From: Clostridiaceae bacterium
Lineage (GTDB): Bacteria > Bacillota > Clostridia > Clostridiales > Clostridiaceae
DNA: 64,000 nt
Assembly: GCA_900759715.1 (NCBI GenBank)
Contig: CAAEXF010000039.1
Coordinates: 4,867 to 68,866, forward strand
Reading direction: 5' to 3'
A program made the translations under genes and the position numbers. The notes beneath the pieces were generated by a model. It worked only from the letters and a program-made list of their open reading frames with translations, was not told where the DNA came from and did no database searches. Below, one piece after another: positions 11,599 to 38,383 of the stretch. Position 1 is the first letter of the stretch. Every line of letters begins with the position of its first letter.

Positions 11599-11644
11599 CA
11601 ATAATAGATTAATAGTATTATAATGTTATTAAATTAATAAATGG

Positions 11645-11920
11645 CAATCCTTTGACGAGGAAGAGTAGCTATTATGTTTAATCACAGAGAGCTGAGGGTG
11701 GTGGGATCTCAGTATGAAAACAAATAGTGAATGGACCTTAGAGGAGTAAATCGAAATTCAAGATCCTTGAAGAGTAGTGGTTACCGTTAGCCGTACGTTA
11801 TAATGGCTAGAGCATGTTGGTGCTTGAAGATGAGAGGTGTTTAATTATTATTATTTTTAAATACAATTTAGGTGGTACCGCGGATAACTCCGTCCTAATT
11901 TTTAGGATGGGGTTTTTTTA
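11645..11920 (+). ncRNA. T-box riboswitch, Trp specifier
   Basis: AGTA and AGAGA/GGTG stem I motifs; specifier gaaTGGac at 11732-34; T-box AATTTAGGTGGTACCGCG; terminator 11886-11920; TTGACA..TATAAT promoter at 11595-11624. Confidence 0.95.
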
Positions 11921-25629: not shown

Positions 25630-26451
25630 ATGACAAAAATAATGAGAATAGGAAAAAAAGACTTTGAACTTGGTAAAAGAACGTACATAATGGGTATACT
25701 TAATGTTACCCCAGATTCATTTTCTGATGGTGGAAGATTTAATGATATAGAAATAGCAATAAATCACGCTAAGGAAATGGTAGCCGAAGGTGCAGATATA
25801 ATAGATATAGGAGGAGAGTCCACAAGACCTAATCATGATCCTGTATCAGAAGAAGAGGAATTAGAAAGAGTCATTCCTGTAATTAGAGCATTGTCTAAGG
25901 GAATAGATGTACCAATATCAATTGATACCTATAAAGGTAAAGTTGCAGAGATGGCAGTAAAAGAAGGAGCGGCACTAATAAATGATGTTTGGGGATTTAA
26001 GAAAGATCCATATATTGCAGAAGTAGCTGCGAAGTACAATGTGCCATGCTGCTTAATGCATAATAGAGACAATAGGAATTATATCAACCTTATGGAAGAT
26101 GTTTTAAAGGATTTGGAGGAAAGTGTAAACATAGCGTTAAAGGCTGGAGTAAAGCCAGAAAATATAATATTAGATCCAGGTATAGGCTTTGCAAAGGATT
26201 ATGAAGAAAATTTAATTGTAATGGATAATTTAGAAGAATTAAATAAATTGGGATATCCAGTGCTTTTGGCAACTTCCAGAAAATCGATGATTGGAAATGC
26301 TTTAAACTTACCATCGGACGAAAGAGTTGAAGGTACGGTTGCCACTACTGTTATAGGAATTATGAAGGGATATGATTTTGTTAGGGTACACGATATAAAA
26401 GCAAATAAGAGAGCTGCAGTTATGACTGATGCTATAGTTAGAAGAAAGTAG
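25630..26451 (+). CDS. folP: Dihydropteroate synthase
   Basis: MGILNVTPDSFSDGG, GGESTRP, DPGIGF, SRKS and RVHD motifs. Confidence 0.97.
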   Translation: MTKIMRIGKKDFELGKRTYIMGILNVTPDSFSDGGRFNDIEIAINHAKEMVAEGADIIDIGGESTRPNHDPVSEEEELERVIPVIRALSKGIDVPISIDTYKGKVAEMAVKEGAALINDVWGFKKDPYIAEVAAKYNVPCCLMHNRDNRNYINLMEDVLKDLEESVNIALKAGVKPENIILDPGIGFAKDYEENLIVMDNLEELNKLGYPVLLATSRKSMIGNALNLPSDERVEGTVATTVIGIMKGYDFVRVHDIKANKRAAVMTDAIVRRK

Positions 26452-26688
26452 TATTTAAACTAAGAAAAGGAGGGGACACCCTCCTTTTAAATTATAAAAT
26501 TTTAATACTGAAAATTAATTTATATACTTATAAATTAAAAGAATAAACAAGGCCTATTTTGAATATAAAATATTAATAACTATTTCCGTTATGAAAATTA
26601 GTACATAAATATCACAAATTAGCTGCATTATAAATAAATTAAATAATAATCTAAAATTATTTTATAATGGTAAAGGGGGTATTGATGT

Positions 26689-26961
26689 ATGGACATACTT
26701 CAAGAGATAAATGGGCAGGATCTTAGGAGAAAGGCTGTTGATGAATTAATTGAAGTTCAAAATAAAATAATAAATGACTGCTTAGATAGATATAATTTTT
26801 ATAAAGTTGAGCTTGAGAAAATAAATATACTGGAAAGTCTAGCAGGCAATATTATTGAAGGTGAAGAGAAAAGAAACAAATATACTTCGGAAATTGATGG
26901 TGCTCTAAAAGAGGCTAAACAAGCCATAAGTTTAAAAATGAAGCTTGAAAATCTTAAATAG
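26689..26961 (+). CDS. Hypothetical helical protein
   Basis: 90 aa; RBS AAAGGGGG. Confidence 0.65.
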   Translation: MDILQEINGQDLRRKAVDELIEVQNKIINDCLDRYNFYKVELEKINILESLAGNIIEGEEKRNKYTSEIDGALKEAKQAISLKMKLENLK

Positions 26962-26977
26962 GCAATGAAGCTTTTAT

Positions 26978-27085
26978 AAAAAACAAAACAACTCTTATTA
27001 GAGCTGTTTTGTATATGATATATTTAAATGGGGAGTCAAATAACTATAACAGTATTAAACTGTTATTTAAATTTTAACCAATTGA
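26978..27085 (-). ncRNA. Candidate small RNA
   Basis: Minus-strand TTACTT-N17-TATAAT promoter (27091-27120), C-rich CTCCCC core, terminator ACAAAACAGCTCT..AGAGTTGTTTTGT plus T run; no ORF. Confidence 0.4.
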
Positions 27086-27267
27086 TAAAATATTATACAT
27101 TATGCTATGTAATTAAGTAAAAAAGTCAGATAGAATAATACACTATCTGACTTTTTATTTTTAATTTTTCAATAAGTAGAGAGTTATACTCTTCAAAATT
27201 GTATGTTATAAGCGAAATAGATAATATATAATTTTAAATAATATGGAATAGTAATGGGAGGTACGTA

Positions 27268-27597
27268 ATGACACGTGAACAGTTAGAAGAAATTTTAAAT
27301 TCCTTTATAGGCAAAAAAATTGTAATTAAAATGAATTCAGATTATTGCAGTTGTATAACTTGTATGCAGCTAAACTCCATTGAATTCTCAGAAGGAGTTA
27401 AAGAGAGTAGGGTTAGCAGCAGTTTCATTAAATACAGCAATGTAAGTATATCAGATGAAAAGGGAAGGTTTGTAATTGAATATGAAGATGTTGAAAATAT
27501 TAAATATAAGGATACTGATAGAGGTCAATTATATGAATTTCAATTAATATATAGAGATGGAACAAAGATTCAATTTTATTCCGAGGAAGTATTCTAA
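27268..27597 (+). CDS. Hypothetical protein
   Basis: 109 aa; RBS GGGAGGT; downstream hairpin 27607-27638. Confidence 0.7.
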   Translation: MTREQLEEILNSFIGKKIVIKMNSDYCSCITCMQLNSIEFSEGVKESRVSSSFIKYSNVSISDEKGRFVIEYEDVENIKYKDTDRGQLYEFQLIYRDGTKIQFYSEEVF

Positions 27598-27764
27598 AAA
27601 TATTAAGAGATAATTGAGATATAAACTCAATTATCTCTATACTTCATAACATGAATATACCTCCAGATAAGTAAACTACATTACTATAATATTCAGGAGG
27701 TTTAAAAAAATTATGAAGGATTATCAATAAATCCTTCATAAAAGTATGTTTTGAGATGATTTTT

Positions 27765-28349
27765 TTAATAATTTTCTACAAACACTTCAAAATATCCTTG
27801 TGGATGTGCACAAGCAGGACATGCTAATGGAGCGCCTTCACCCTCATGGATGTATCCACAGTTATTACATTTCCATAAAACAGTTTCATTTTTTGTAAAT
27901 GCCATATTATTATTTAAATTATCAAGTAACTTTCTATATCTCGCTTCGTGGTGCTTTTCTACTTCAGCTATTTTATTAAAAACCGCTGATACAGCTGGAA
28001 AACCTTCTTCTTCAGCAGTCTTTGCAAATTCAGGGTAAAGGTCTGTCCATTCTTCATTCTCACCCTTTGCCGCTGCAAGAAGATTTGTTTTAGTATCTCC
28101 TAGAGAAACAGGGAATGCTGCATTTATTTCTACTGTTTCTCCTTTTAAGTCTTCATTTAGAAATTTAAAAAATCTTTTTGCGTGCTCTTTTTCATTTTCA
28201 GCTGTTTCTATAAACAAATTAGAAATTTGTATATATCCTTCTTTTTTTGCAGCAGAAGCATAATAGGAGTATCTGTTTCTTGCTTGTGATTCTCCTGCAA
28301 ATGCCTTCATTAAGTTTTCAGCAGTTTTTGTACCTTTCAATGATTTCAT
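27765..28349 (-). CDS. rbr: Rubrerythrin
   Basis: [14 protein letters not shown] diiron motifs, C-terminal CNNC...CPAC rubredoxin domain. Confidence 0.96.
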
Positions 28350-28591
28350 AAAAACTCCTCCTTAAAAGAATGTATATTTACTACATTCTACAAACATCTT
28401 ATTTATTCCTCTTGATTTTCAGAAAGTTAATAAAGTAGCTCATTGAAAAGTACATTATATACATCTTTTTCATAGTATTAATATGGAAGTAGGTGTTTAA
28501 TATTTTACAAAAAATAGTGAAAAAATTATAACTGCAGCTTAAACTGCAGTTATGTTCAGTTAATCTAGTACATACTAGATAGAGTTTTTTA

Positions 28592-29032
28592 TTAACGATG
28601 GTGATAGTGATAGTAGTTATATGGATAATATGGATAATAAGGATAATGATGATGATATTGTCTGAAATCCTCATCATCGTTATCATCCTCATCATCTCTA
28701 TATTTCATATGATCCATACATTTACATTTTTCTTTATGATCCATGCTATATGGCATTGTTTCAGTAGGCATCATTTGAGCAGGGGAAACCTGTGATGGCA
28801 TCATATGATGAGGCATCATATGATGAGGCATCATTTGAGCAGGGGAAACTTGTGATGGCATCATCTGCTGACCATACATCATTGGACAACAGCACATCAT
28901 AGGACAACACATTCCGAATTGATGATGTTTATGATGGCTATGGTGGTGATGATGACGACGAGTTTCATCAAGATTTGGACTAATTATTTCATCAAGATTT
29001 TGATTAGAATTTAAATTTTCGTCTTTGTACAT
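28592..29032 (-). CDS. His/Met/Cys/Tyr-rich low-complexity protein, probable spore coat/exosporium component
   Basis: Poly-His, CCPMMCCC, (MMPSQVSPAQ)x2, MMPHH and YPY repeats; RBS GGAGGT; SigK-like promoter. Confidence 0.7.
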   Translation of the reverse strand: MYKDENLNSNQNLDEIISPNLDETRRHHHHHSHHKHHQFGMCCPMMCCCPMMYGQQMMPSQVSPAQMMPHHMMPHHMMPSQVSPAQMMPTETMPYSMDHKEKCKCMDHMKYRDDEDDNDDEDFRQYHHHYPYYPYYPYNYYHYHHR

Positions 29033-29066
29033 TAATGTACCTCCATAAAATTCTTACACACAGTAT

Positions 29067-29094
29067 TATATTATGTATAGAGATGAAAAATGTT
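29067..29094 (-). promoter_or_regulatory. SigK-type promoter
   Basis: AC-N16-CATAATATA matches the SigK consensus. Confidence 0.6.
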
Positions 29095-29386
29095 ACGGGT
29101 TTATAAAAATTTTTTTGAGATAATCTATATAAAAATTTTGATAGCCTCTCTGAAAAAGTGTTTGTTAATTTCAGATGTTTATTTATTTTACAAAAGATTA
29201 ATAAAGTAAATAGTTATTTAACTTAGACGACACAAGAATGTAACAATTACCATTTATAATAGTAATTGTCCTAAGTTAATAAAGACTTAGAGGAAATAGC
29301 TGTCCCCTTATAATTAAATATATATTTCACAAAGGCACTAGTAGAAATACTTGTGCTTATTTTTTTCGAAGAAGAAGGAAGGCTAT

Positions 29387-29415
29387 TTGACAAACTTATG
29401 GAGGTATATTAAAAT
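29387..29415 (+). promoter_or_regulatory. SigA promoter of the preQ1 operon
   Basis: TTGACA-N17-TAAAAT. Confidence 0.8.
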
Positions 29416-29440
29416 GTACTAAGATTTATAAAACCGAATA

Positions 29441-29480
29441 AGACAGTTCGTAACCATCCTGTCTATAAGCAAAACTATGG
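29441..29480 (+). ncRNA. preQ1 class I riboswitch
   Basis: AGACAG-TTCGTAACCATC-CTGTCT stem with A-rich tail ATAAGCAAAACTA; terminator-like hairpins near 29516-29537 and 29577-29599; upstream of queC/queT. Confidence 0.88.
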
Positions 29481-29637
29481 AATTAACTATTAAGACTAGT
29501 AGATTGTTTGTATATGAGGGGCGGAGTGCCTCTTTTTATTTTTTGTTGGTCCCTTTAGTTTAATTTCGTATTTTTTAGGGCAGGCTAAGCCCTTTTTTTA
29601 TTGGTTAAATATGAACAATATCCCAACGAGGTGAACT

Positions 29638-30639
29638 ATGAAAAAGATTGGAGTAACGACTACAGTACCTATAGAAATCTTAATTGCTGCTGACTATGAA
29701 GTTATTGATCTTAATAATATTTTTGTTACATCAGAAAATTACTTTAAATACATTGATATAGCTGAAAGGGAAGGATTTCCCAAAAGCTGCTGTGCTTGGA
29801 AAAAAGGTATGTATGGAGTATGCGTTGAGCATGAAATAAAAGAACTGGTGGGAGTTACAGAAGGCGACTGCTCTAATACAAAGGCGCTGGAGGAAGTATT
29901 AGATATGCAGGGAGTTAAAATTTATCCTTTTGCATATCCACATGGACGTAAACTAGAGGATGTTAAAAGATCACTAGATAACTTCATGGATATGTTTGAT
30001 GTAAATTTAAGTGATGTTGAGAAGGTAAGAAAAAGGTTAAATAAAGCAAGAGCTAAGGCAAGAAAGTTTGATGAGCTTACCTTCATTAATAACAAGGTGT
30101 CTGGTTTTGAAAACCACTTATATCAGGTAAGCTGCAGTGATTTCAATAGCAATGTAGATAAATTTGAGGAAGAGCTTTGTGAAAAAATTGAAGAAATAGA
30201 AAAAAGAAGTCCTATTGATAAAAAAATAAGACTTGGATATATAGGTGTTCCACCAATGACCTGTGATATATATGATTATGTTGAAAATTTTGATGCTCAT
30301 TTTGTATACAATGAAGTTCAAAGGGAATTTGCTTTCCCAAGAGCTGATAAAGCGGAAAATATATATGAACAGTATTATGATTATACTTACCCTTATGATA
30401 TTAAATTTAGATTAAAGGACATAAAAAAGCAGATAGAAGAAAGAAAAATAGATGGAATAATACATTATACTCAGGCTTTTTGCTACAGACAGATAGAAGA
30501 CATAGTGATGAAAAAACAGCTAGATATTCCTGTACTTAATATAGAAGGAGATAAGTTAAATTTTTTGGATGCGAGAACAAAGCTTAGGCTCGAGGCATTT
30601 TTAGATATGTTGTTAGACTTGAAAAAATTTCAAAAATAG
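29638..30639 (+). CDS. 2-hydroxyacyl-CoA dehydratase family (HgdB/BcrC-like) Fe-S subunit
   Basis: FP..CC, GDCS, DGIIHY...FC and PVLNIEGD...TKLRLEAFL motifs. Confidence 0.85.
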   Translation: MKKIGVTTTVPIEILIAADYEVIDLNNIFVTSENYFKYIDIAEREGFPKSCCAWKKGMYGVCVEHEIKELVGVTEGDCSNTKALEEVLDMQGVKIYPFAYPHGRKLEDVKRSLDNFMDMFDVNLSDVEKVRKRLNKARAKARKFDELTFINNKVSGFENHLYQVSCSDFNSNVDKFEEELCEKIEEIEKRSPIDKKIRLGYIGVPPMTCDIYDYVENFDAHFVYNEVQREFAFPRADKAENIYEQYYDYTYPYDIKFRLKDIKKQIEERKIDGIIHYTQAFCYRQIEDIVMKKQLDIPVLNIEGDKLNFLDARTKLRLEAFLDMLLDLKKFQK

Positions 30640-30669
30640 CTTAATGCAGATAATAAAGAAGGTGAAGAT

Positions 30670-31431
30670 GTGAGAAGACTTGGTATAGATTTAGGAAGTA
30701 GAGAAGTAAAGCTTGTACTGTTAGAGGGTAAAAAAGTGGTAAAAAAGTTTAAGATAAGTACTATGTCTTTTTATAGAGATTACTGCAGTTTCGATGGAAA
30801 AATAATAGTTAATCTTGACAAACTAGATGTAGGACAAATAGATTCTGCAGTATCCACTGGTTATGGAAGAAATAATACAGATTTAAGTTTTTTTACTCCT
30901 ATAAATGAGATAAAAGCCCATGTTTATGGAGTACTATTTCAAACAGAGCTTAAAGATTTTATTCTTTTAGATGTGGGAGGACAGGACGTAAAGGTAGTTA
31001 AGGTTGAAAAAGGTATTATAACAGATTTAGAATTAAACGAAAAATGTGCTGCATCCTGTGGAAGATATTTAGAGAATATGGCAAACGTTCTTGAAATTCC
31101 TTTAGACAACATGTTTGAGTACTATGAAAACCCAGTAGAACTTAACTCAACTTGTGCAGTTTTTTCAGAATCAGAGCTTATAGGAAAGATTGCTGAAGGA
31201 ATTAGTATGGATAGACTTTGTGCAGGTGTAAATTATTCTTTATACAAAAGATTAGAACCTTTACTTAAAAAGTTTTATGGTAAGACTTTAGTTTTATCAG
31301 GTGGAGTAGCAAGAAATAATGCTTTAAAAACATATTTGCAAAAAGATTATGCTGAAATAATAAATTTACAAGATGCTCAATTTAATGGAGCTTTAGGATG
31401 TTGTTATTATGCTGAAAGGATGGGATTGTAA
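30670..31431 (+). CDS. ATP-dependent activase (HgdC/BadF-type ASKHA 'archerase')
   Basis: GIDLGS, TGYGR, DVGGQD.K, NEKCAA, STCAVF.ESE and SGGVA.N motifs. Confidence 0.92.
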
Positions 31432-32105
31432 TGAAAAAAGCAGTAGTTTTGTTGTCTGGAGGCTTGGATTCTAGTACGGCAGTTTATTTAGCTAAAAAAG
31501 AAGGCTTTGAAGTTTATGCGGTATCCTTTGATTATGGGCAAAGGCACGATAAAGAGCTTAATTGTGCTAAAAATGTAGCGGAAAAAGCAGGAGTTAAAGA
31601 ACATGTAATTGTTACTACTAACATGAATGTTTGGGGAGGCTCTGCTTTAACTGATAAAAATATAGAGGTTCCTGAAGGAAAAGAGGATAGTAAAGACATA
31701 CCAGTTACCTATGTTCCAGCAAGAAATATGATATTTTTAGCTTATGCTGCATCCTATGCAGAAGCTATAGGCGCTCAGGATATATTTATAGGTGTAAGCG
31801 AGGTTGACTACTCTGGGTATGTAGACTGTAGAGAAGAATTTATAAATGCTATGGAAAATGCAATAAATCATGGAACTGTTTGTGCGGTAGAACAGGGAAG
31901 AAAAATAAAAATACATGCTCCTTTTCTTAATATGACAAAGGCTGAAGAAATAAAGCTCGGTATGGAGCTTGGAGTAGATTATAGCTTAACATGGTCCTGC
32001 TACAAGGGAGAAGCTTTAGCTTGTGGAACTTGTGATAGCTGCATGTTAAGATTAAAGGCTTTTAAAGAAGCAGGATATAAAGATCCCGTAGAATATAATC
32101 TATAG
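31431..32105 (+). CDS. queC: 7-cyano-7-deazaguanine (preQ0) synthase
   Basis: SGGLDS, YGQRH, TYVPARN and SCY..CG.CDSC motifs; TAATG overlap with the activase gene. Confidence 0.96.
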
Positions 32106-32154
32106 GGTTGCTAGACGGTCAGTTAGTTTTTATATAATTAAAAGGAGAAAGAAT

Positions 32155-32646
32155 ATGCAAATTAATGTTACGAAAGATAAAAATATATCTTCTATAAAAA
32201 AATTAGTTATTTCTGGACTTGTTATCGGAATGTATGTAATAGTTATGTGCTTAACTCAAAGTTTTGCTTTTGGACAGTATCAAATTAGAATTGCCACTTC
32301 ATTATATGCATTAGGTGGAATATTTCCATTTTTAATTGTACCAATGGGAATAGCAAACCTTATTAGCAACACACTAATGGGGGGACTTGGAATCTTTGAT
32401 ATGGTTGGTGGAGCTGCAGTTGGAATGATGGCTTCAGGACTTGCTTATTTAATTAAGAAACTTAATCTAAATGACTGGTTCGTAACACTTCCTATAGTTT
32501 TTATACCAGGGCTTGTAGTTCCAATTTGGCTATCACTTTTAATACATGTTCCATATAAAGTACTAGCTATAAGCATATGTATAGGACAAATTATTCCCGC
32601 AATAGTAGGGGTATTATTATTAAAACAATTAAGAAAAGTTTTATAA
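32155..32646 (+). CDS. queT: QueT family queuosine-precursor transporter (ECF S-component)
   Basis: FGQYQIRIA and G.AN.ISN...G.G.FD.VGG motifs; in the preQ1 operon. Confidence 0.88.
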   Translation: MQINVTKDKNISSIKKLVISGLVIGMYVIVMCLTQSFAFGQYQIRIATSLYALGGIFPFLIVPMGIANLISNTLMGGLGIFDMVGGAAVGMMASGLAYLIKKLNLNDWFVTLPIVFIPGLVVPIWLSLLIHVPYKVLAISICIGQIIPAIVGVLLLKQLRKVL

Positions 32647-32791
32647 GATGATAGGTAGTTAAAGTCTGTAGACAAGATTTGTTGTTTACAGGCTTTAATT
32701 ATTTGATAGTAAATTTATTCTTATGTTTGTTTACTACTTGGCACCAATTGGAATATAATTAACTTAAATATTATGCAAGGTAGGTGACAGG

Positions 32792-34546
32792 GTGGCAGGA
32801 AGAGTAAAAAATTTTATATTTAAAAATAGAATGAGATATGCAAAGGGAGCAATGGCTCTACTTTTAATAAATATTCTACAAGTTTCTATTCCAAGAATTA
32901 CCGGGGAAATTATAGACGGTATTCAAACTGGAAGTATAAATGCTAACAATGTTGGCATGTACTCATCTATTATAGTAATTATTGCAATATCTATTTTTGT
33001 ATTAAACTACTTAAGCAGGCTACAGATAACAGGTGCATCTATATTATTTCAATACGAAACTACAAATGCAATATTTAAACATTTAGAAAAGCTTTCTATG
33101 AGTTTCTTTAACAAAAACAGTGTTGGAGAACTGATGGCACTTTCAGTAAACGATGTTAATGCAGTACGTTTAGCTTTAGGCAGAGGTGTTAACTTAATTA
33201 TAGATACATTTTTCCTTATGCTTCTAAGTATAATAGCTATGGGAAAAACTATAAATATGAAACTCACGATCATGGCTTTTTTACCTATACCAATTTTAAT
33301 AGTTGTAGTAGCAAAGTTTGGGAGTGTAATAAATAATAGATTTAAAAAAGTACAAGAATCCTTTGCTAGTTTAACTGAAAAAGTCCAGGAAAATATCGCA
33401 GGTATTAGAGTTATAAAAACCTTTGTACAGGAAAAAGAGGAAATTGAGAATTTCAAGATAATAAATGTAAGAAATTATGAGACAAACATACAACTGGTTA
33501 AGGTTTGGGGAGTATTTTATCCTTTAATTGAATTTTTAAGTGCTGTTTCTTATTTAATTGTATTGGTTTATGGATCTTCTTTAGTATTAAAAAAGCAGAT
33601 AACTATAGGAGATTTTATTGCGGTAAACAGCTATATAGGAGTTTTAATAAGACCTATAAAATTTATAGGAAGGATTGTTAATATAGTTCAAAGAGGAGAG
33701 GCATCAAAAGGTAGAATAGAGAAATTGTTTAATGAAAAACCTGAAGTACATGATAAATCAGATTTTAAAAGTAAGTTTGATAACCTTAAACTTAGCGGAA
33801 AAGTAGTTTTTAAAAACTTAACTTTTTCATATAGTAAGGAAGCTAAACCTGTACTAAAAAATATAGATTTAACTTTAGAGCCTGGAAAAACTGTAGCCAT
33901 TGTCGGAAAGGTTGGAAGTGGGAAGTCCACCTTGGCAAATTTAATTTTAAGATTGTACAATCCCCAAGAGAAAGGACAGCTTATAATAGACAATATGGAC
34001 ATTACAGAAATACCTGTTAAGGTTCTCCGTGATAACATAGGATATGTACCGCAGGATAATTTCTTATTCTCTGAGTCAATAAAATATAATATAGCTTTTT
34101 CTCAAAGAGATTATACTATAAAACAAATAGAGGATGCAGCAAAGATAAGTCAGGTATATGATAATATAATGGACTTTTCAGATAAATTTGATACTATGCT
34201 TGGTGAAAGAGGTGTGAATATATCTGGTGGTCAAAAACAGAGGATATCCATTGCTAGGGCTATAATAAAAAAACCTTCTATACTTGTATTAGATGATTGT
34301 TTATCAGCAGTTGATACAGAGACAGAAAAAAATATATTGGATGGATTAAAATATATTATAAAAGATTGTTCATGCCTGATTATATCTCACAGAGTTTCCA
34401 GTATAAAACATGCAGATGAGATTATTGTACTAGACAAAGGAAGCATAGTAGAAAGAGGTGCTCATGCAGATCTTATGAAAATAGGCGGTTTATATTACAG
34501 AATGTATGAAAAACAGATATTACAGGAGAGATCTGAAAATTACTAA
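32792..34546 (+). CDS. Heterodimeric ABC exporter, subunit 1 (TMD+NBD)
   Basis: GKVGSGKS, SGGQKQR and LDDCLSAVD (degenerate Walker B) motifs. Confidence 0.92.
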   Translation: MAGRVKNFIFKNRMRYAKGAMALLLINILQVSIPRITGEIIDGIQTGSINANNVGMYSSIIVIIAISIFVLNYLSRLQITGASILFQYETTNAIFKHLEKLSMSFFNKNSVGELMALSVNDVNAVRLALGRGVNLIIDTFFLMLLSIIAMGKTINMKLTIMAFLPIPILIVVVAKFGSVINNRFKKVQESFASLTEKVQENIAGIRVIKTFVQEKEEIENFKIINVRNYETNIQLVKVWGVFYPLIEFLSAVSYLIVLVYGSSLVLKKQITIGDFIAVNSYIGVLIRPIKFIGRIVNIVQRGEASKGRIEKLFNEKPEVHDKSDFKSKFDNLKLSGKVVFKNLTFSYSKEAKPVLKNIDLTLEPGKTVAIVGKVGSGKSTLANLILRLYNPQEKGQLIIDNMDITEIPVKVLRDNIGYVPQDNFLFSESIKYNIAFSQRDYTIKQIEDAAKISQVYDNIMDFSDKFDTMLGERGVNISGGQKQRISIARAIIKKPSILVLDDCLSAVDTETEKNILDGLKYIIKDCSCLIISHRVSSIKHADEIIVLDKGSIVERGAHADLMKIGGLYYRMYEKQILQERSENY

Positions 34547-34551
34547 GGAGG

Positions 34552-36396
34552 ATGTTTATGCCTAGAGGTTTTGGCGGCGGGGGATTTTCACAAGGTTCTT
34601 CGGGAAAAAGATTTAGAACTGATGAAAAAAATCATAAAAAAGGTGATAGAGAAGCAACAAAAAAGCTAATAAAATATGTAGGTCCTTATTGGAAGTATTT
34701 TTTGCTGTCGCTTACTTTAATTCTTGTAGTATCAGCTGCTCAGTTAGCAAGACCTTATATTGTAAAAATAGTAATTGATGATTATATAAGAAAAGGCTTA
34801 TCAGGTGATTTAGCAGTAAATCAATGTGAAGCAGGAATAAAATTCTTAGGTTTAATTTATCTTGTACTTATGCTTATAGAATTTATTTTAAGTTACTTTC
34901 AAACTTATATTTTAGAGCGTACAGCTAAAAAAATAATTATGAATTTGAGGCAGCAAGTTTTTAGTCATATACAAAAGCTTCCCATAGCCTATTTCGATAA
35001 AAACCCGATTGGGAAAATAGTGACAAGAGTTACCAATGATACAGATTCTTTAAATGACATGTTTACAGATGTAGTAATAGGTTTTTTGCAGAATGTATTT
35101 ATTATGATAGGAATAGTATTAGTTATGATAAGTTTGGACTTAAAGCTTACTGTAATATGTCTTTTAGTTACGCCGTTAATGTTTGGAGTTACACTTTTAT
35201 TTAAAAAAAGGGCAAGAAGAATTTTTGGTGAAATAAGAAATAAATTATCCTCCATAAATGCCTTTTTATCAGAGCATATATCTGGTATGAAAATTATTCA
35301 GATATTTAACATGGAGGACAAAAAATACAATGAGTTTCAAAATATAAATGAAGAATATTACAATGCAAACTTAAAACAAATCATACTTTTTGGTGTCTTT
35401 AGACCCTTCATGGATGTAGTAAAAACCTTATCATTAGCACTTATATTATTTTATGGAGGTACAAGGCTCATTAAGGGAACCATAGAAGTAGGAACTCTTT
35501 ATGCTTTCATTAATTACATAAATAGATTGTTTCAGCCTATTATTGAGCTTACGGACCAATATAACACATATCAAAGCTCCATGGTTTCTTCTGAAAGAAT
35601 ATTTGGTATACTAGATGAGAAAATTGAGGACCAGCATAGTGATGGATGTAATTTAAATAAGGAAGAAGGAGAAATTGAATTTAAAAATGTGTGGTTTGCT
35701 TATGAATCTGAAAACTGGATTTTAAAGAATCTTTCTTTTAAAATATTACCTGGACAATCTGTTTCTTTTGTAGGGGCTACAGGAGCGGGGAAAACAAGTA
35801 TTATAAATTTGCTTTGCGGTTTTTATGAAAATCAGAAAGGTGAAATACTTATTGATGGCATAAATATAAAAGATATAAAAACTGAGGAACTGAGAAGAAA
35901 TATAGGATTAGTACTTCAAGATGTATTTTTATTTGCAGGAGATATTGAAACTAATATAAAGTTATTTAATAAAGAAATATCATTAGAAAATGTGAAAAAA
36001 GCTGCCCAACATGTAAATGCAGATTATTTTATAGAAAACTTTGATGATGGATATAAGCATAAGATTAATGAAAAAGGAACAACTCTTTCGATGGGACAAA
36101 GACAGCTTATTTCTTTTGCTAGAGCATTGGTTTTTAATCCGTCAATTTTAGTTATGGATGAGGCTACATCAAATATTGATACAGAAACAGAGGCAATAAT
36201 TCAAGAGGCTTTAGAAAAGCTTATGAAAAACAGAACTACTATTGCAGTAGCGCACAGACTATCAACTATAAAGAAGTCTGATAATGTTATTGTTTTGCAT
36301 AAGGGAGAAATAAAAGAAATAGGAAATCATAAGGAACTTATGACCAAAAAAGGTTTTTATTATAGTCTTTACAAACTGCAGTATGAGAATTTATAA
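34552..36396 (+). CDS. Heterodimeric ABC exporter, subunit 2 (TMD+NBD)
   Basis: GATGAGKT, SMGQRQL, MDEATS and AHRLSTI motifs. Confidence 0.92.
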   Translation: MFMPRGFGGGGFSQGSSGKRFRTDEKNHKKGDREATKKLIKYVGPYWKYFLLSLTLILVVSAAQLARPYIVKIVIDDYIRKGLSGDLAVNQCEAGIKFLGLIYLVLMLIEFILSYFQTYILERTAKKIIMNLRQQVFSHIQKLPIAYFDKNPIGKIVTRVTNDTDSLNDMFTDVVIGFLQNVFIMIGIVLVMISLDLKLTVICLLVTPLMFGVTLLFKKRARRIFGEIRNKLSSINAFLSEHISGMKIIQIFNMEDKKYNEFQNINEEYYNANLKQIILFGVFRPFMDVVKTLSLALILFYGGTRLIKGTIEVGTLYAFINYINRLFQPIIELTDQYNTYQSSMVSSERIFGILDEKIEDQHSDGCNLNKEEGEIEFKNVWFAYESENWILKNLSFKILPGQSVSFVGATGAGKTSIINLLCGFYENQKGEILIDGINIKDIKTEELRRNIGLVLQDVFLFAGDIETNIKLFNKEISLENVKKAAQHVNADYFIENFDDGYKHKINEKGTTLSMGQRQLISFARALVFNPSILVMDEATSNIDTETEAIIQEALEKLMKNRTTIAVAHRLSTIKKSDNVIVLHKGEIKEIGNHKELMTKKGFYYSLYKLQYENL

Positions 36397-36523
36397 TAAA
36401 CCAGGTGTTAATTTAAATATATTTAATCTTTTATTCTTGCACTTACTTTCTAGTAGGTGTATTTTTTTATATATAAGATACTTACCAAGTTTTAGCATAT
36501 TCGACTTAAAGGAGGAATAAGGT

Positions 36524-38383
36524 TTGATATCATCACTAAAAAAATATAAAAAGAGAAAAGCTCAGTATGATCTATTGCTTAAAAAGCAACAGAAATGTAT
36601 AGATAAGATAAGCACCTTACGATTAGTTATTTTTGTACTAGGGCTTGCAATTTTAATAGGAGCGTATATCTTGAGAAGGTATTACCTATTTGATTTATTG
36701 GTTCTAGTAGTAATTGTTCTATTTTGTTATTTAGCCTATTTACATAAAAGTATAGAAAATAAAAATAAGTATATAGCTGCATTATATGAAGTAAATGAAA
36801 GCTCCATAAAACGATTAAAGGGAGATTGGAAACTCTTTGAGGATACCGGTGGAGAGTTTATAGATGAAAATCATAATTACTCATATGATCTTGATATTTT
36901 TGGTAGAGGCTCTTTATTTCAATGGATAAATGTAGCCCATACTTATCTGGGAAGACAAAAGCTTAAAGATATGTTAACAGAAAAACCTCAAAATGAACAG
37001 AACATATATTATAGGCAATCTGCAGTTAAAGAACTTGAGAAAAAAATATATTTTAGGCAGAGACTTGAGGCAGAAGGAAAAATAATCAACAACAGTCAGA
37101 ATCTCAAAGAGCTTTTTCTATGGATAAAAGAAAGAAGTAACTATATATTAAAAAGACAAGTAATTTGGAGCTTAAGAATTTTTTCAATGGTGACTGCGAT
37201 AGCTACCTTAACCTTGGTGGTTAGAATAATTGATTATGTACTGGCTGTTTTATTAGACATTGATAGAAGTGCTCCAAAAATATTTTATTTAATTCCTTAT
37301 TATATTCCTATTCTTCTCATTTTGATTCAAAGCTTTATTTTAAGAATAAAAAGAGAAGATAGAATAAAAAATTTAATTATTGCTGAAAAATATAACGATA
37401 ACATAAAAACATATAGAAATATGCTTAGACATATAGAAAAGCATAAATTTAAATCAGAGTATATTGTAAATTTATGTGAAAAACTTTACGATAATGATGG
37501 CCTAAGTGCATCTAAACAGATAGATGTTTTTTCTAAAATTTGTGAATCAATAGCTAACAGACGTAATATGCTATATCCTATTTTAAATTCCATTCTCATG
37601 ATAGAATATCACTGGGCTATTTCTATTGAAGAATGGAAGATAAAATCAGGAAATAATTTTGAAAATTGGATTAATACAATAGCTGAATTAGAAGCTTTAT
37701 GTAGTATTGCGGTTATCAAATACGATAATCCCAATTGGAGTATGCCTAAGATTGTAACTGGACCCTCAAAGATTATAGCTAAAAATATGGGACATCCACT
37801 TCTGGGAGAAGAACGGGTATGCAATAACTTAAAGCTAGAGGAGCCCTATCAAGTTATGCTTATAACAGGCTCCAATATGTCTGGGAAGAGTACATTTATG
37901 AGAACTGTGGGAATTAATATTGTATTAGCATATGCAGGAGCTCCTGTATGTGCAGATGAATTTTATTGTACTATTATGGATCTATACAGTTGTATGAAGG
38001 TAAGTGATAATTTAGGTGAAAGTATATCTTCCTTTTATGCAGAGATATTAAAAATTAAAAATATTGTTAAGGCTTCAAAAGAAGGAAAGCAAGTACTATT
38101 TTTATTAGATGAAATTTTTAAAGGAACTAATTCAAGAGATAGACACACTGGAGCTATGATTTTGGTAAAACAATTAAGTAAAATTGGAAATCTAGGCTTT
38201 GTATCCACTCATGATTTAGAGTTAGGTGAGCTGGAAAATCATAAAAATTCAAAAGTTAAGAACTATCATTTTTCCGAATACTATAGAGAGAATAAAATTT
38301 ATTTTGATTATAAATTGAAAGCCGGAGTTTCACCTACAAGAAATGCTGTATATTTAATGAAGTTAGCTGGCATTGAAATATAA
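36524..38383 (+). CDS. Membrane-anchored MutS-related ATPase
   Basis: N-terminal and central TM segments; ITGSNMSGKST, SSFYAE, LLDEIFKGTNS and STHD motifs; no recognisable mismatch-binding domain. Confidence 0.88.
   Translation: MISSLKKYKKRKAQYDLLLKKQQKCIDKISTLRLVIFVLGLAILIGAYILRRYYLFDLLVLVVIVLFCYLAYLHKSIENKNKYIAALYEVNESSIKRLKGDWKLFEDTGGEFIDENHNYSYDLDIFGRGSLFQWINVAHTYLGRQKLKDMLTEKPQNEQNIYYRQSAVKELEKKIYFRQRLEAEGKIINNSQNLKELFLWIKERSNYILKRQVIWSLRIFSMVTAIATLTLVVRIIDYVLAVLLDIDRSAPKIFYLIPYYIPILLILIQSFILRIKREDRIKNLIIAEKYNDNIKTYRNMLRHIEKHKFKSEYIVNLCEKLYDNDGLSASKQIDVFSKICESIANRRNMLYPILNSILMIEYHWAISIEEWKIKSGNNFENWINTIAELEALCSIAVIKYDNPNWSMPKIVTGPSKIIAKNMGHPLLGEERVCNNLKLEEPYQVMLITGSNMSGKSTFMRTVGINIVLAYAGAPVCADEFYCTIMDLYSCMKVSDNLGESISSFYAEILKIKNIVKASKEGKQVLFLLDEIFKGTNSRDRHTGAMILVKQLSKIGNLGFVSTHDLELGELENHKNSKVKNYHFSEYYRENKIYFDYKLKAGVSPTRNAVYLMKLAGIEI

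Follow-up and report, generated by a model that had tools for sequence, protein, structure and literature searches.

We analyzed a stretch of 64,000 nucleotides (the window) from a Clostridiaceae bacterium (assembly GCA_900759715.1, contig CAAEXF010000039.1, positions 4,867 to 68,866 of the forward strand). It carries an operon for an iron–sulfur (Fe-S) protein, an ATP-dependent activase, the queuosine enzyme QueC, and the queuosine-precursor transporter QueT. Co-occurrence, gene context, and homology indicate that the Fe-S protein and its activase (the pair) probably replace QueF, the enzyme that converts 7-cyano-7-deazaguanine (preQ0) to 7-aminomethyl-7-deazaguanine (preQ1). We hold this assignment with good rather than full confidence, because all of the evidence is comparative; from it we infer the identity of the substrate and product, the number of electrons transferred, the presence of a metal cluster, and the binding of a ligand to the leader. 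The first-pass annotation of this DNA had proposed that the pair performs 7-deazaguanine chemistry rather than amino-acid fermentation, and this proposal is supported by the mutual exclusion of the pair and QueF, the que operons of the relatives, and the preQ1-type leader.

The genome to which the window belongs is 100% complete by marker genes, with 5.77% contamination. A PTPS/queD gene was matched once, on another contig, where a queE-like radical-SAM open reading frame (ORF) and folE come after it. The queE-like ORF was recognized by its position, its motif, and its resemblance to the ORFs that relatives carry between queD and folE, rather than by a family-library scan. The tgt and queA genes lie side by side, and queG scores 263 bits against a cut-off of 200. 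A search for QueF (PF14489) gave no match anywhere in the genome, and the same search matched 7 of 14 control genomes. Because the genome can make preQ0 and use preQ1 but no QueF was found, the conversion of preQ0 to preQ1 is the only step without a gene. Among the candidates for replacement named in the first-pass annotation (QueF, QueE, or QueG/QueH), QueF is therefore the one that stands, while a queE-like gene and QueG are both present. We also noted a QueH (DUF208) match of 90 bits in this genome (G000:C135:16182-16469, locus L064). It is broken by four stop codons and looks like a decayed second epoxyqueuosine reductase beside the intact QueG elsewhere in the genome.

To obtain a phylogenetic profile, the same 300 genomes of the window's class were searched for the Fe-S protein, QueF, QueC, and QueA; one genome (G096) was not scorable in the Fe-S protein, QueF, and QueA profiles. 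Orthologues of the Fe-S protein were found in 22 genomes at E ≤ 8e-69, and the next matches had E ≥ 1.7e-13, a gap that makes the orthologue group clearly bounded. Strong QueF matches (E ≤ 3.9e-18) occurred in 25 genomes, with 28 genomes over the cut-off in all, and strong QueC matches (at least 189 bits) in 35. The 35 strong-QueC genomes divided into 19 with the Fe-S protein only, 15 with QueF only, one (G139) with both, and none with neither. Fisher's exact test on these 35 genomes gave p = 5e-9, a value that exaggerates the strength of the association, since related genomes are not independent observations. Profiling of the pair against queF, which the first-pass annotation had suggested as a check, thus showed the two to be mutually exclusive among QueC holders.

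The split between the pair and QueF spans about 12 taxonomic families. The pair occurs together with QueC in families f1, f8, f19, f23, f28, and f44, and QueF together with QueC in f1, f12, f17, f20, f24, and f64; both solutions are found together in f57. One genus (g2) also has both, as G036 and G149 carry the pair and G175 carries queD-queE-folE-queC-queF. QueA, which acts on preQ1 in tRNA, was detected in 296 of the 300 genomes and in all 22 pair holders, implying that the pair holders need preQ1. QueC was present in 20 of the 22.

Fourteen genomes with weak PF14489 matches (E 4e-7 to 8e-4) were set aside as not QueF, because each match covers model positions 1-59 only, in ORFs of 184-225 residues; the protein is putatively another T-fold member such as FolE. 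Three of the weak matches (G240, G191, and G230) lie at or just over the cut-off, in genomes with neither the pair nor QueC, and one, in the pair holder G200, lies below it at 26.1 bits. The QueF-like gene of G139 (L062:3133-3570 (+)) is a stand-alone ORF of 145 residues that is not beside que genes, and its score of 67 bits compares with 108-121 bits elsewhere.

The gene neighborhoods of the relatives connect the pair to the same pathway. The pair lies inside a que operon in 15 of the 21 genome relatives, and these operons are arranged as pair-queD-queE-(folE)-queC (ten), pair-queC-queD-queE (four), and pair-queC (one). A further set of 80 metagenome loci, at 43-74% identity, included 38 that were well flanked (2.5 kb or more on the upstream side and 3.5 kb or more on the downstream side). 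Linkage to que genes was observed in 25 of these 38, and was concentrated in the closer relatives (17/18 at 55% identity or more, 8/20 below). The order is reversed in four metagenome loci, where queD-queE comes first and the Fe-S gene follows. The leader described below was present in 31 of the fetched loci. The first-pass annotation had considered that orthologues elsewhere might be linked neither to que genes nor to preQ1 riboswitches, and these counts do not bear this out.

In 21 of 21 genome relatives, the next gene after the Fe-S gene is that of the activase, and the two are adjacent in 33 of the 38 well-flanked metagenome loci. One metagenome locus (L117:6992-8815 (+)) encodes a natural fusion of the Fe-S protein and the activase, of 608 residues, with an Asp/Glu racemase-family gene upstream. 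In another locus (L116), the same racemase gene lies upstream of an unfused pair, which is followed by a fumarase gene. The queT gene is part of the operon in only some relatives; it adjoins the pair in the window and in L072, L082, L084, L085, and L092.

The Fe-S protein belongs to PF06050 (IPR010327; 122.1 bits against a cut-off of 28.4, residues 8-325). This was its only Pfam domain, and neither the T-fold QueF domain (PF14489) nor an RNA-binding domain was found. C52, C78, and C282, and no other cysteines, are invariant in 20 of 20 relatives and in 77 of 77 sequences, whether que-linked or not. Other residues conserved across the 77 sequences are D24, N26, N27, E43, K56, H160, D168, E226-R229, Y251-Y253, R258, R269, Y277, Q279, D305, and R317, and the sequences give the impression of a single functional group. 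When solved structures were searched with a profile, the matches were, in order, the double-cubane cluster protein (DCCP; 7yyl/6eno, E ~4e-14), HadC (3o3m_B, E 6e-6), and BzdN (8s02_B, E 7e-4). C52, C78, and C282 align with cysteines of HadC and DCCP. The remaining cluster cysteines of DCCP fall at or beside E226-R229 and T250-Y253, where the Fe-S protein family has no cysteine.

Our first thought, that the Fe-S protein is itself a double-cubane protein, was ruled out by the cysteine count and by the score of the double-cubane model NF040772 (43.7 bits against a cut-off of 350). With three invariant cysteines, the others of DCCP missing, and NF040772 far below its cut-off, the protein is a three-cysteine member of the superfamily that comprises the 2-hydroxyacyl-CoA dehydratases, benzoyl-CoA reductases, and DCCP (HAD/BCR/DCCP). 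C52, C78, and C282 presumably hold a [4Fe-4S] cluster in a three-cysteine motif of the HadBC type.

An AlphaFold2 (AF2) model of the Fe-S protein (pLDDT 86.5, pTM 0.85) showed the two-domain Rossmann-like fold shared with solved members of the superfamily. A Foldseek search with this model matched 6eno, 3o3n_B, 7yyl, 8s02, and 9g87 (DCCP, HadBC, BzdNO, and MbdON) at E 3e-15 to 1e-11 and TMq 0.70-0.79. The homodimer model scored 0.73, a mark reached by 20 of 30 proteins solved as pairs and by 1 of 23 solved as single chains, and the best of three controls scored 0.00. Three runs agreed in at least 95% of contacts (pLDDT 90-91), and the predicted interface lies around the cysteine motifs. The modeling suggests that the protein is probably a homodimer, although the result may only reflect likeness, because the DCCP and HadBC dimers have already been solved.

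Named holders of the Fe-S protein include Clostridium, Tepidibacter, Oceanirhabdus, Caloranaerobacter, Orenia, and others. Where the family proteins carry a public name, it is "2-hydroxyacyl-CoA dehydratase" or a close variant (benzoyl-CoA reductase/2-hydroxyglutaryl-CoA dehydratase subunit); loci L001-L007 were used for names and identities only. In one orthologue (L061:6004-7188 (-), genome G165), ~38 extra residues follow the SDF motif, at alignment columns 226-263; the leader, activase, and queC are all present. This orthologue had the appearance of a split gene, an interpretation rejected because the ORF is intact.

The activase (family TIGR00241, PF01869) carries the motif CAASCG at residues 126-131. 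All 22 sequences keep C126 and C162, and by analogy with HgdC we take these two to be the cysteines through which a [4Fe-4S] cluster links the subunits of the dimer. C130 is not invariant, as the motif reads CAASSG in 4 of the 22. The first-pass description of an HgdC-type activase is thus upheld by the family match, with the reservation that the second cysteine of the motif varies.

The operon is preceded by a leader that resembles the preQ1-I riboswitch. Its P1 stem pairs GACAG (29442-29446) with CUGUC (29459-29463), its loop reads UUCGUAACCAUC, and its A-rich tail reads UAUAAGCAAAACUAUGG. In a 701-nt search, RF00522 matched this leader with 19.9 bits and an E value of 0.17, below its gathering score of 39. 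A window-wide scan reported no Rfam family for the leader at the gathering level, and none was matched at that level in the leaders of relatives (20 loci). RF00522 was the sole Rfam family matched in the leaders of three relatives (31.3, 26.1, and 25.0 bits). Of the 20 genome relatives having upstream sequence, 13 show the pattern GACAGUUCG(U/A)AACCAUCCUGUCUAUAAACAAAACUAGG ahead of the Fe-S gene. The pattern search gave 34 matches, from which L129, L141, and L146 were dropped as not of this leader type. Rfam thus confirms the preQ1-I aptamer named in the first-pass annotation only in part, its score being below the gathering level; conservation in relatives and RF00522 as the sole match support it.

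Two arrangements bear on what the leader controls. In G175, the same leader type heads a canonical queD-queE-folE-queC-queF operon. In G136 and G022, a preQ1-type leader directly precedes the pair alone, with unrelated neighbors, which makes the tie between the leader and the pair independent of co-transcription with que genes. The variable hairpin downstream of the aptamer changes in sequence and is kept as a hairpin, and it is the sole element to do so.

Folding of the leaders revealed two alternative structures. The full-length leader folds into the P1 stem and the terminator. When the transcript is cut before the 3' arm of the terminator, seven of the nine leaders of this operon type fold at lowest energy into a long antiterminator helix. 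One side of this helix is the P1 3' strand with the entire A-rich tail, and the other is the U-rich strand with the 5' arm of the terminator. The helix is only partial in the window's own leader. These predicted terminator and antiterminator alternatives suggest the layout of an OFF switch. A second terminator-like hairpin, listed in Table 1, is visible in some relatives too (L040 and L048).

Other leader arrangements were observed among the relatives. In L124 (2355-2399), a preQ1-type leader stands before a folE-like gene, ~4.6 kb upstream of a pair-queD-queE-queC cluster, and not before the pair. No riboswitch was matched in 11 more distant loci by a permissive Rfam scan, and the distant operons (L052-L056, L058, L059, and those of the L099-L114 type) seem to be without the leader. 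In L058 and L059 (family f28, without the preQ1-type leader), two copies of AAAGGTCGTTTT lie 8-12 nt apart, ~150-250 nt upstream of the Fe-S gene and just upstream of a promoter-like TATAAT, and a LytTR response-regulator gene adjoins. These copies may be operator sites, and hence a different mode of control.

We propose the following mechanism, in which the operon would make preQ1 and preQ1 would switch the operon off. The Fe-S protein would form a homodimer with one [4Fe-4S] cluster per subunit, held by three cysteines so that one iron is left for the substrate. The nitrile of preQ0, the product of QueC, would bind to this free iron. The activase, reduced by ferredoxin or flavodoxin, would spend ATP to push single electrons of very low potential into the cluster. 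Four electrons and four protons would convert the nitrile of preQ0 to the aminomethyl group of preQ1, the pair thereby taking the place of the NADPH-dependent QueF. Tgt, QueA, and QueG would then convert preQ1 to queuosine in tRNA. With preQ1 bound, the P1 stem and the A-rich tail would stay locked in the aptamer, allowing the terminator to form. Without the ligand, the P1 3' strand and the tail would pair with the U-rich strand and the 5' arm of the terminator, resulting in read-through. A nitrile is a reasonable substrate for such a protein, because the superfamily performs ATP-driven reductions of substrates that are hard to reduce.

Several observations weigh against this assignment. No que gene is nearby in 6 of the 21 genome relatives (including G136 and G022) or in 13 of the 38 well-flanked metagenome loci, and some distant members adjoin Asp/Glu racemase and fumarase genes. 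Among the relatives scanned, a CoA-transferase gene was seen in L055 only; it is of family III, lies just upstream of the pair in the same orientation, and is set off from it by a hairpin and a promoter-like site. Within the profile, a QueF-like gene accompanies the pair in G139, QueC is missing from the pair holders G022 and G061, and two genomes with weak QueC-like matches (G212, 90.7 bits; G246, 43.3 bits) have neither the pair nor QueF. The leader lies under the gathering score in all loci tested (19.9-31.3 bits), and its P1 stem is invariant in 31 of 31 copies, so that covariation lends it no support. We also found no report of a four-electron nitrile reduction in the HAD/BCR/DCCP superfamily. 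As for the pair without QueC, this combination is mirrored by QueF without QueC in nine genomes, and both would fit salvage of preQ0 followed by the same reduction.

The most durable alternative keeps the chemistry and changes the substrate. Bacterial Tgt can accept preQ0; it would insert preQ0 in tRNA, and the pair would reduce preQ0-tRNA to preQ1-tRNA. The profile and context data fit this scheme too. However, a leader of the free-base-sensing type and queT in the operon point to a pool of free base, QueF itself acts on the free base, and the Pfam search of the Fe-S protein found no RNA-binding domain. We consider this scheme unlikely and, on the base-sensing leader type and queT, favor the free preQ0 base as the substrate.

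A second alternative, to which we give somewhat less credit, is that the pair assists a different enzyme of the queuosine pathway, perhaps as a source of low-potential electrons for radical-SAM QueE or for QueG, or catalyzes another step, with preQ1 imported by QueT. The frequent adjacency of the pair to queD and queE, and queT in the window's operon, are in its favor. It leaves the exclusion between the pair and QueF among QueC holders unexplained, since none of the 35 genomes has neither, and genomes with QueF have needs of the QueE and QueG type as well. If preQ1 were imported, moreover, queC, queD, and queE would be pointless, and queT belongs to the operon of only some relatives.

Salvage is a further possibility, and a slightly fainter one again: the pair would convert an imported 7-deazaguanine (queuine or another precursor) to preQ1. 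The loci in which queT adjoins the pair and the two pair holders without QueC would agree with such a role. Against it, 20 of the 22 holders have QueC, most of the operons carry the whole de novo set, and the pair without QueC parallels QueF without QueC, in keeping with preQ0 salvage and the same reduction. Finally, an ordinary 2-hydroxyacyl-CoA dehydratase or similar fermentation enzyme in a coincidental que neighborhood would account for the Pfam match (HGD-D), the public name "2-hydroxyacyl-CoA dehydratase family protein", and the CoA-transferase gene of L055, but is very improbable given one subunit gene in 21 of 21 relatives where dehydratases have two, no CoA-transferase seen in window positions 26000-37000, que linkage in 15/21 and 25/38, the preQ1-type leader, and the exclusion of QueF.

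The features of the operon are listed in Table 1. The Fe-S protein, activase, queC, and queT genes are closely spaced on the plus strand, and the start codon of queC overlaps the stop codon of the activase gene as TAATG. The gene content described in the first-pass annotation was recovered, namely one HgdB-like subunit gene (a single PF06050 gene, as in 21 of 21 relatives), queC with its overlap, and queT. Its statement that queD, queE, and queF are missing nearby also agreed with our search, in which the sole PTPS/queD match, followed by the queE-like gene and folE, lay on the other contig and QueF nowhere in the genome. It had likewise noted neither a CoA-transferase nor an acyl-CoA dehydrogenase nearby, and we saw none among the ORFs of positions 26000-37000, where the ABC-type ORFs, like the rest of the window, were without a family-library scan. 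A consensus match for the promoter that it had claimed is present. Promoter-like sites numbered 13 in the scan, whereas shuffled sequences would lead one to expect 18, and the promoter match alone is therefore little proof.

Table 1. Predicted features of the preQ1-type leader and the four-gene operon (window positions).
Feature	Position	Strand	Basis
Sigma-70-type promoter, TTGACA-17-TAAAAT	29387..29415	+	11/12 consensus positions; top site of scan; consensus match only
preQ1-I-like aptamer	29441..29480 (29438-29484 at widest)	+	RF00522, 19.9 bits; motif kept in relatives
Expression platform: P1 3' strand and tail, variable hairpin, U-rich strand complementary to tail, first terminator	29459..29545	+	Folds
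First terminator	stem 29516-29534, then T run	+	Hairpin scan
Second terminator-like hairpin, just upstream of ribosome-binding site	29577-29593, then T run (to 29600)	+	Seen in fold too
Single-subunit Fe-S protein, HAD/BCR/DCCP superfamily, 333 aa	29638..30639	+	PF06050 HGD-D, E 5e-35
HgdC-type ATP-dependent activase (archerase), 253 aa, GTG start	30670..31431	+	TIGR00241, 147.8 bits vs cut-off 125.4
queC (7-cyano-7-deazaguanine synthase)	31431..32105	+	TIGR00364, 239 bits
queT (queuosine-precursor transporter)	32155..32646	+	PF06177, 91 bits

Four metatranscriptome runs from four studies each contained one to three short contigs (151-227 nt) over the leader-gene junction, the Fe-S gene, the activase gene, and queC. 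These contigs are at most a weak hint of transcription of the operon, because RNA libraries can contain DNA, and stretches lacking coverage carry no information. Two other parts of the window attracted our attention. A T-box leader at 11643-11900 (+) was the sole Rfam match at the gathering level in the window (124.2 bits, E 4.5e-27). An ORF of 146 residues at 28592-29032 (-), very rich in His, Met, and Pro, with MMPHH- and QVSPAQMMP-type repeats and without a Pfam match, lies immediately upstream of a rubrerythrin gene on the same strand (27765-28349 (-)). Its product may bind metals.

A full-text literature search, which did not cover subscription-only papers, found no paper tying the Fe-S protein/activase pair to queuosine. 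A review of November 2026 describes QueF as the only known nitrile-to-amine enzyme family, and a gut-genome survey lists QueF in the standard queuosine signature (PMC6593275). We lean towards a broader proposal, with less assurance than we have in the replacement of QueF itself. The pair may be the first ATP-driven Fe-S nitrile reductase, and a second family, unrelated to QueF, for the conversion of a nitrile to a primary amine. The preQ0 nitrile, placed on the free iron of a three-cysteine [4Fe-4S] cluster and reduced by four ATP-energized electrons, would be the first natural, non-CoA-ester substrate for the single-subunit archerase-dependent branch, by a route used by many Clostridia.

Such an enzyme would fill a hole in the pathway of many anaerobes whose queuosine synthesis is seemingly complete but for QueF, as in 19 of the 35 strong-QueC genomes of our sample. 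If the proposal is true, a second, metal-based nitrile-to-amine family would be of interest for nitrogenase-like reductions and biocatalysis. It would also assign a natural substrate to an uncharacterized branch of the HAD/BCR/DCCP superfamily and correct the annotation of the family as "2-hydroxyacyl-CoA dehydratase".

The leader shares with the preQ1-I riboswitch (RF00522) a small hairpin, a UUCG..AAC..C loop, an A-rich tail ending in CUAGG, and a position upstream of que genes, followed by a terminator. It differs in its score below the gathering level, its invariant P1 stem, and its long antiterminator, which would pair the whole tail with a U-rich strand.

Judged by the features that define them, the pair fits neither a two-subunit 2-hydroxyacyl-CoA dehydratase nor a double-cubane protein. 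According to a review, relatives in the superfamily perform ATP-driven reductions at low potential, such as ketyl formation in the dehydratases and ring reduction in the benzoyl-CoA reductases (PMC7317905). The class I benzoyl-CoA reductases (BcrABCD, BzdNOPQ, and MbdONPQ) resemble the proposed system in coupling electron transfer stoichiometrically to ATP and in acting on a substrate that resists reduction, and the fold matches BzdNO and MbdON. They have four subunits and an aromatic CoA-ester substrate, and their sequence similarity to the Fe-S protein is weak (BzdN, E 7e-4). HgdAB/HadBC, with HgdC/HadI, share the fold, the three-cysteine [4Fe-4S] motif, in which the protein leaves one iron unligated, and an activase of the archerase type. 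They are heterodimers of paralogous subunits that act on CoA esters with one recycled electron, whereas the system described here has a single subunit, an operon without CoA-related genes, and a proposed net four-electron reduction.

DCCP and its reductase DCCP-R (PDB 6ENO and 7YYL) are the closest solved relatives by profile (E 3.7e-14) and by fold. Both systems have a single subunit that forms a homodimer (known in DCCP and predicted here) and an adjoining gene for a dedicated ATP-dependent reductase. In the same review, HadBC is described with a three-cysteine [4Fe-4S] cluster whose one free iron serves the substrate, and DCCP with a seven-cysteine motif; DCCP reduces the triple bond of acetylene, is inhibited by cyanide, and is given no known natural substrate (PMC7317905). 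Compared with this motif, six of whose cysteines are cluster ligands, three cysteines are kept in the Fe-S protein, which is ~90 residues shorter. The natural substrate, unassigned for DCCP, can be proposed here.

The known enzyme closest in proposed function is QueF (EC 1.7.1.13). The two would catalyze the same reaction; both take up an equivalent position in que operons headed by this preQ1-type leader, and their distributions are mutually exclusive. They share no homology, as QueF is a metal-free, NADPH-dependent T-fold enzyme (PF14489), whereas the system in the window combines a PF06050 Fe-S protein with an ATP-hydrolyzing electron donor.

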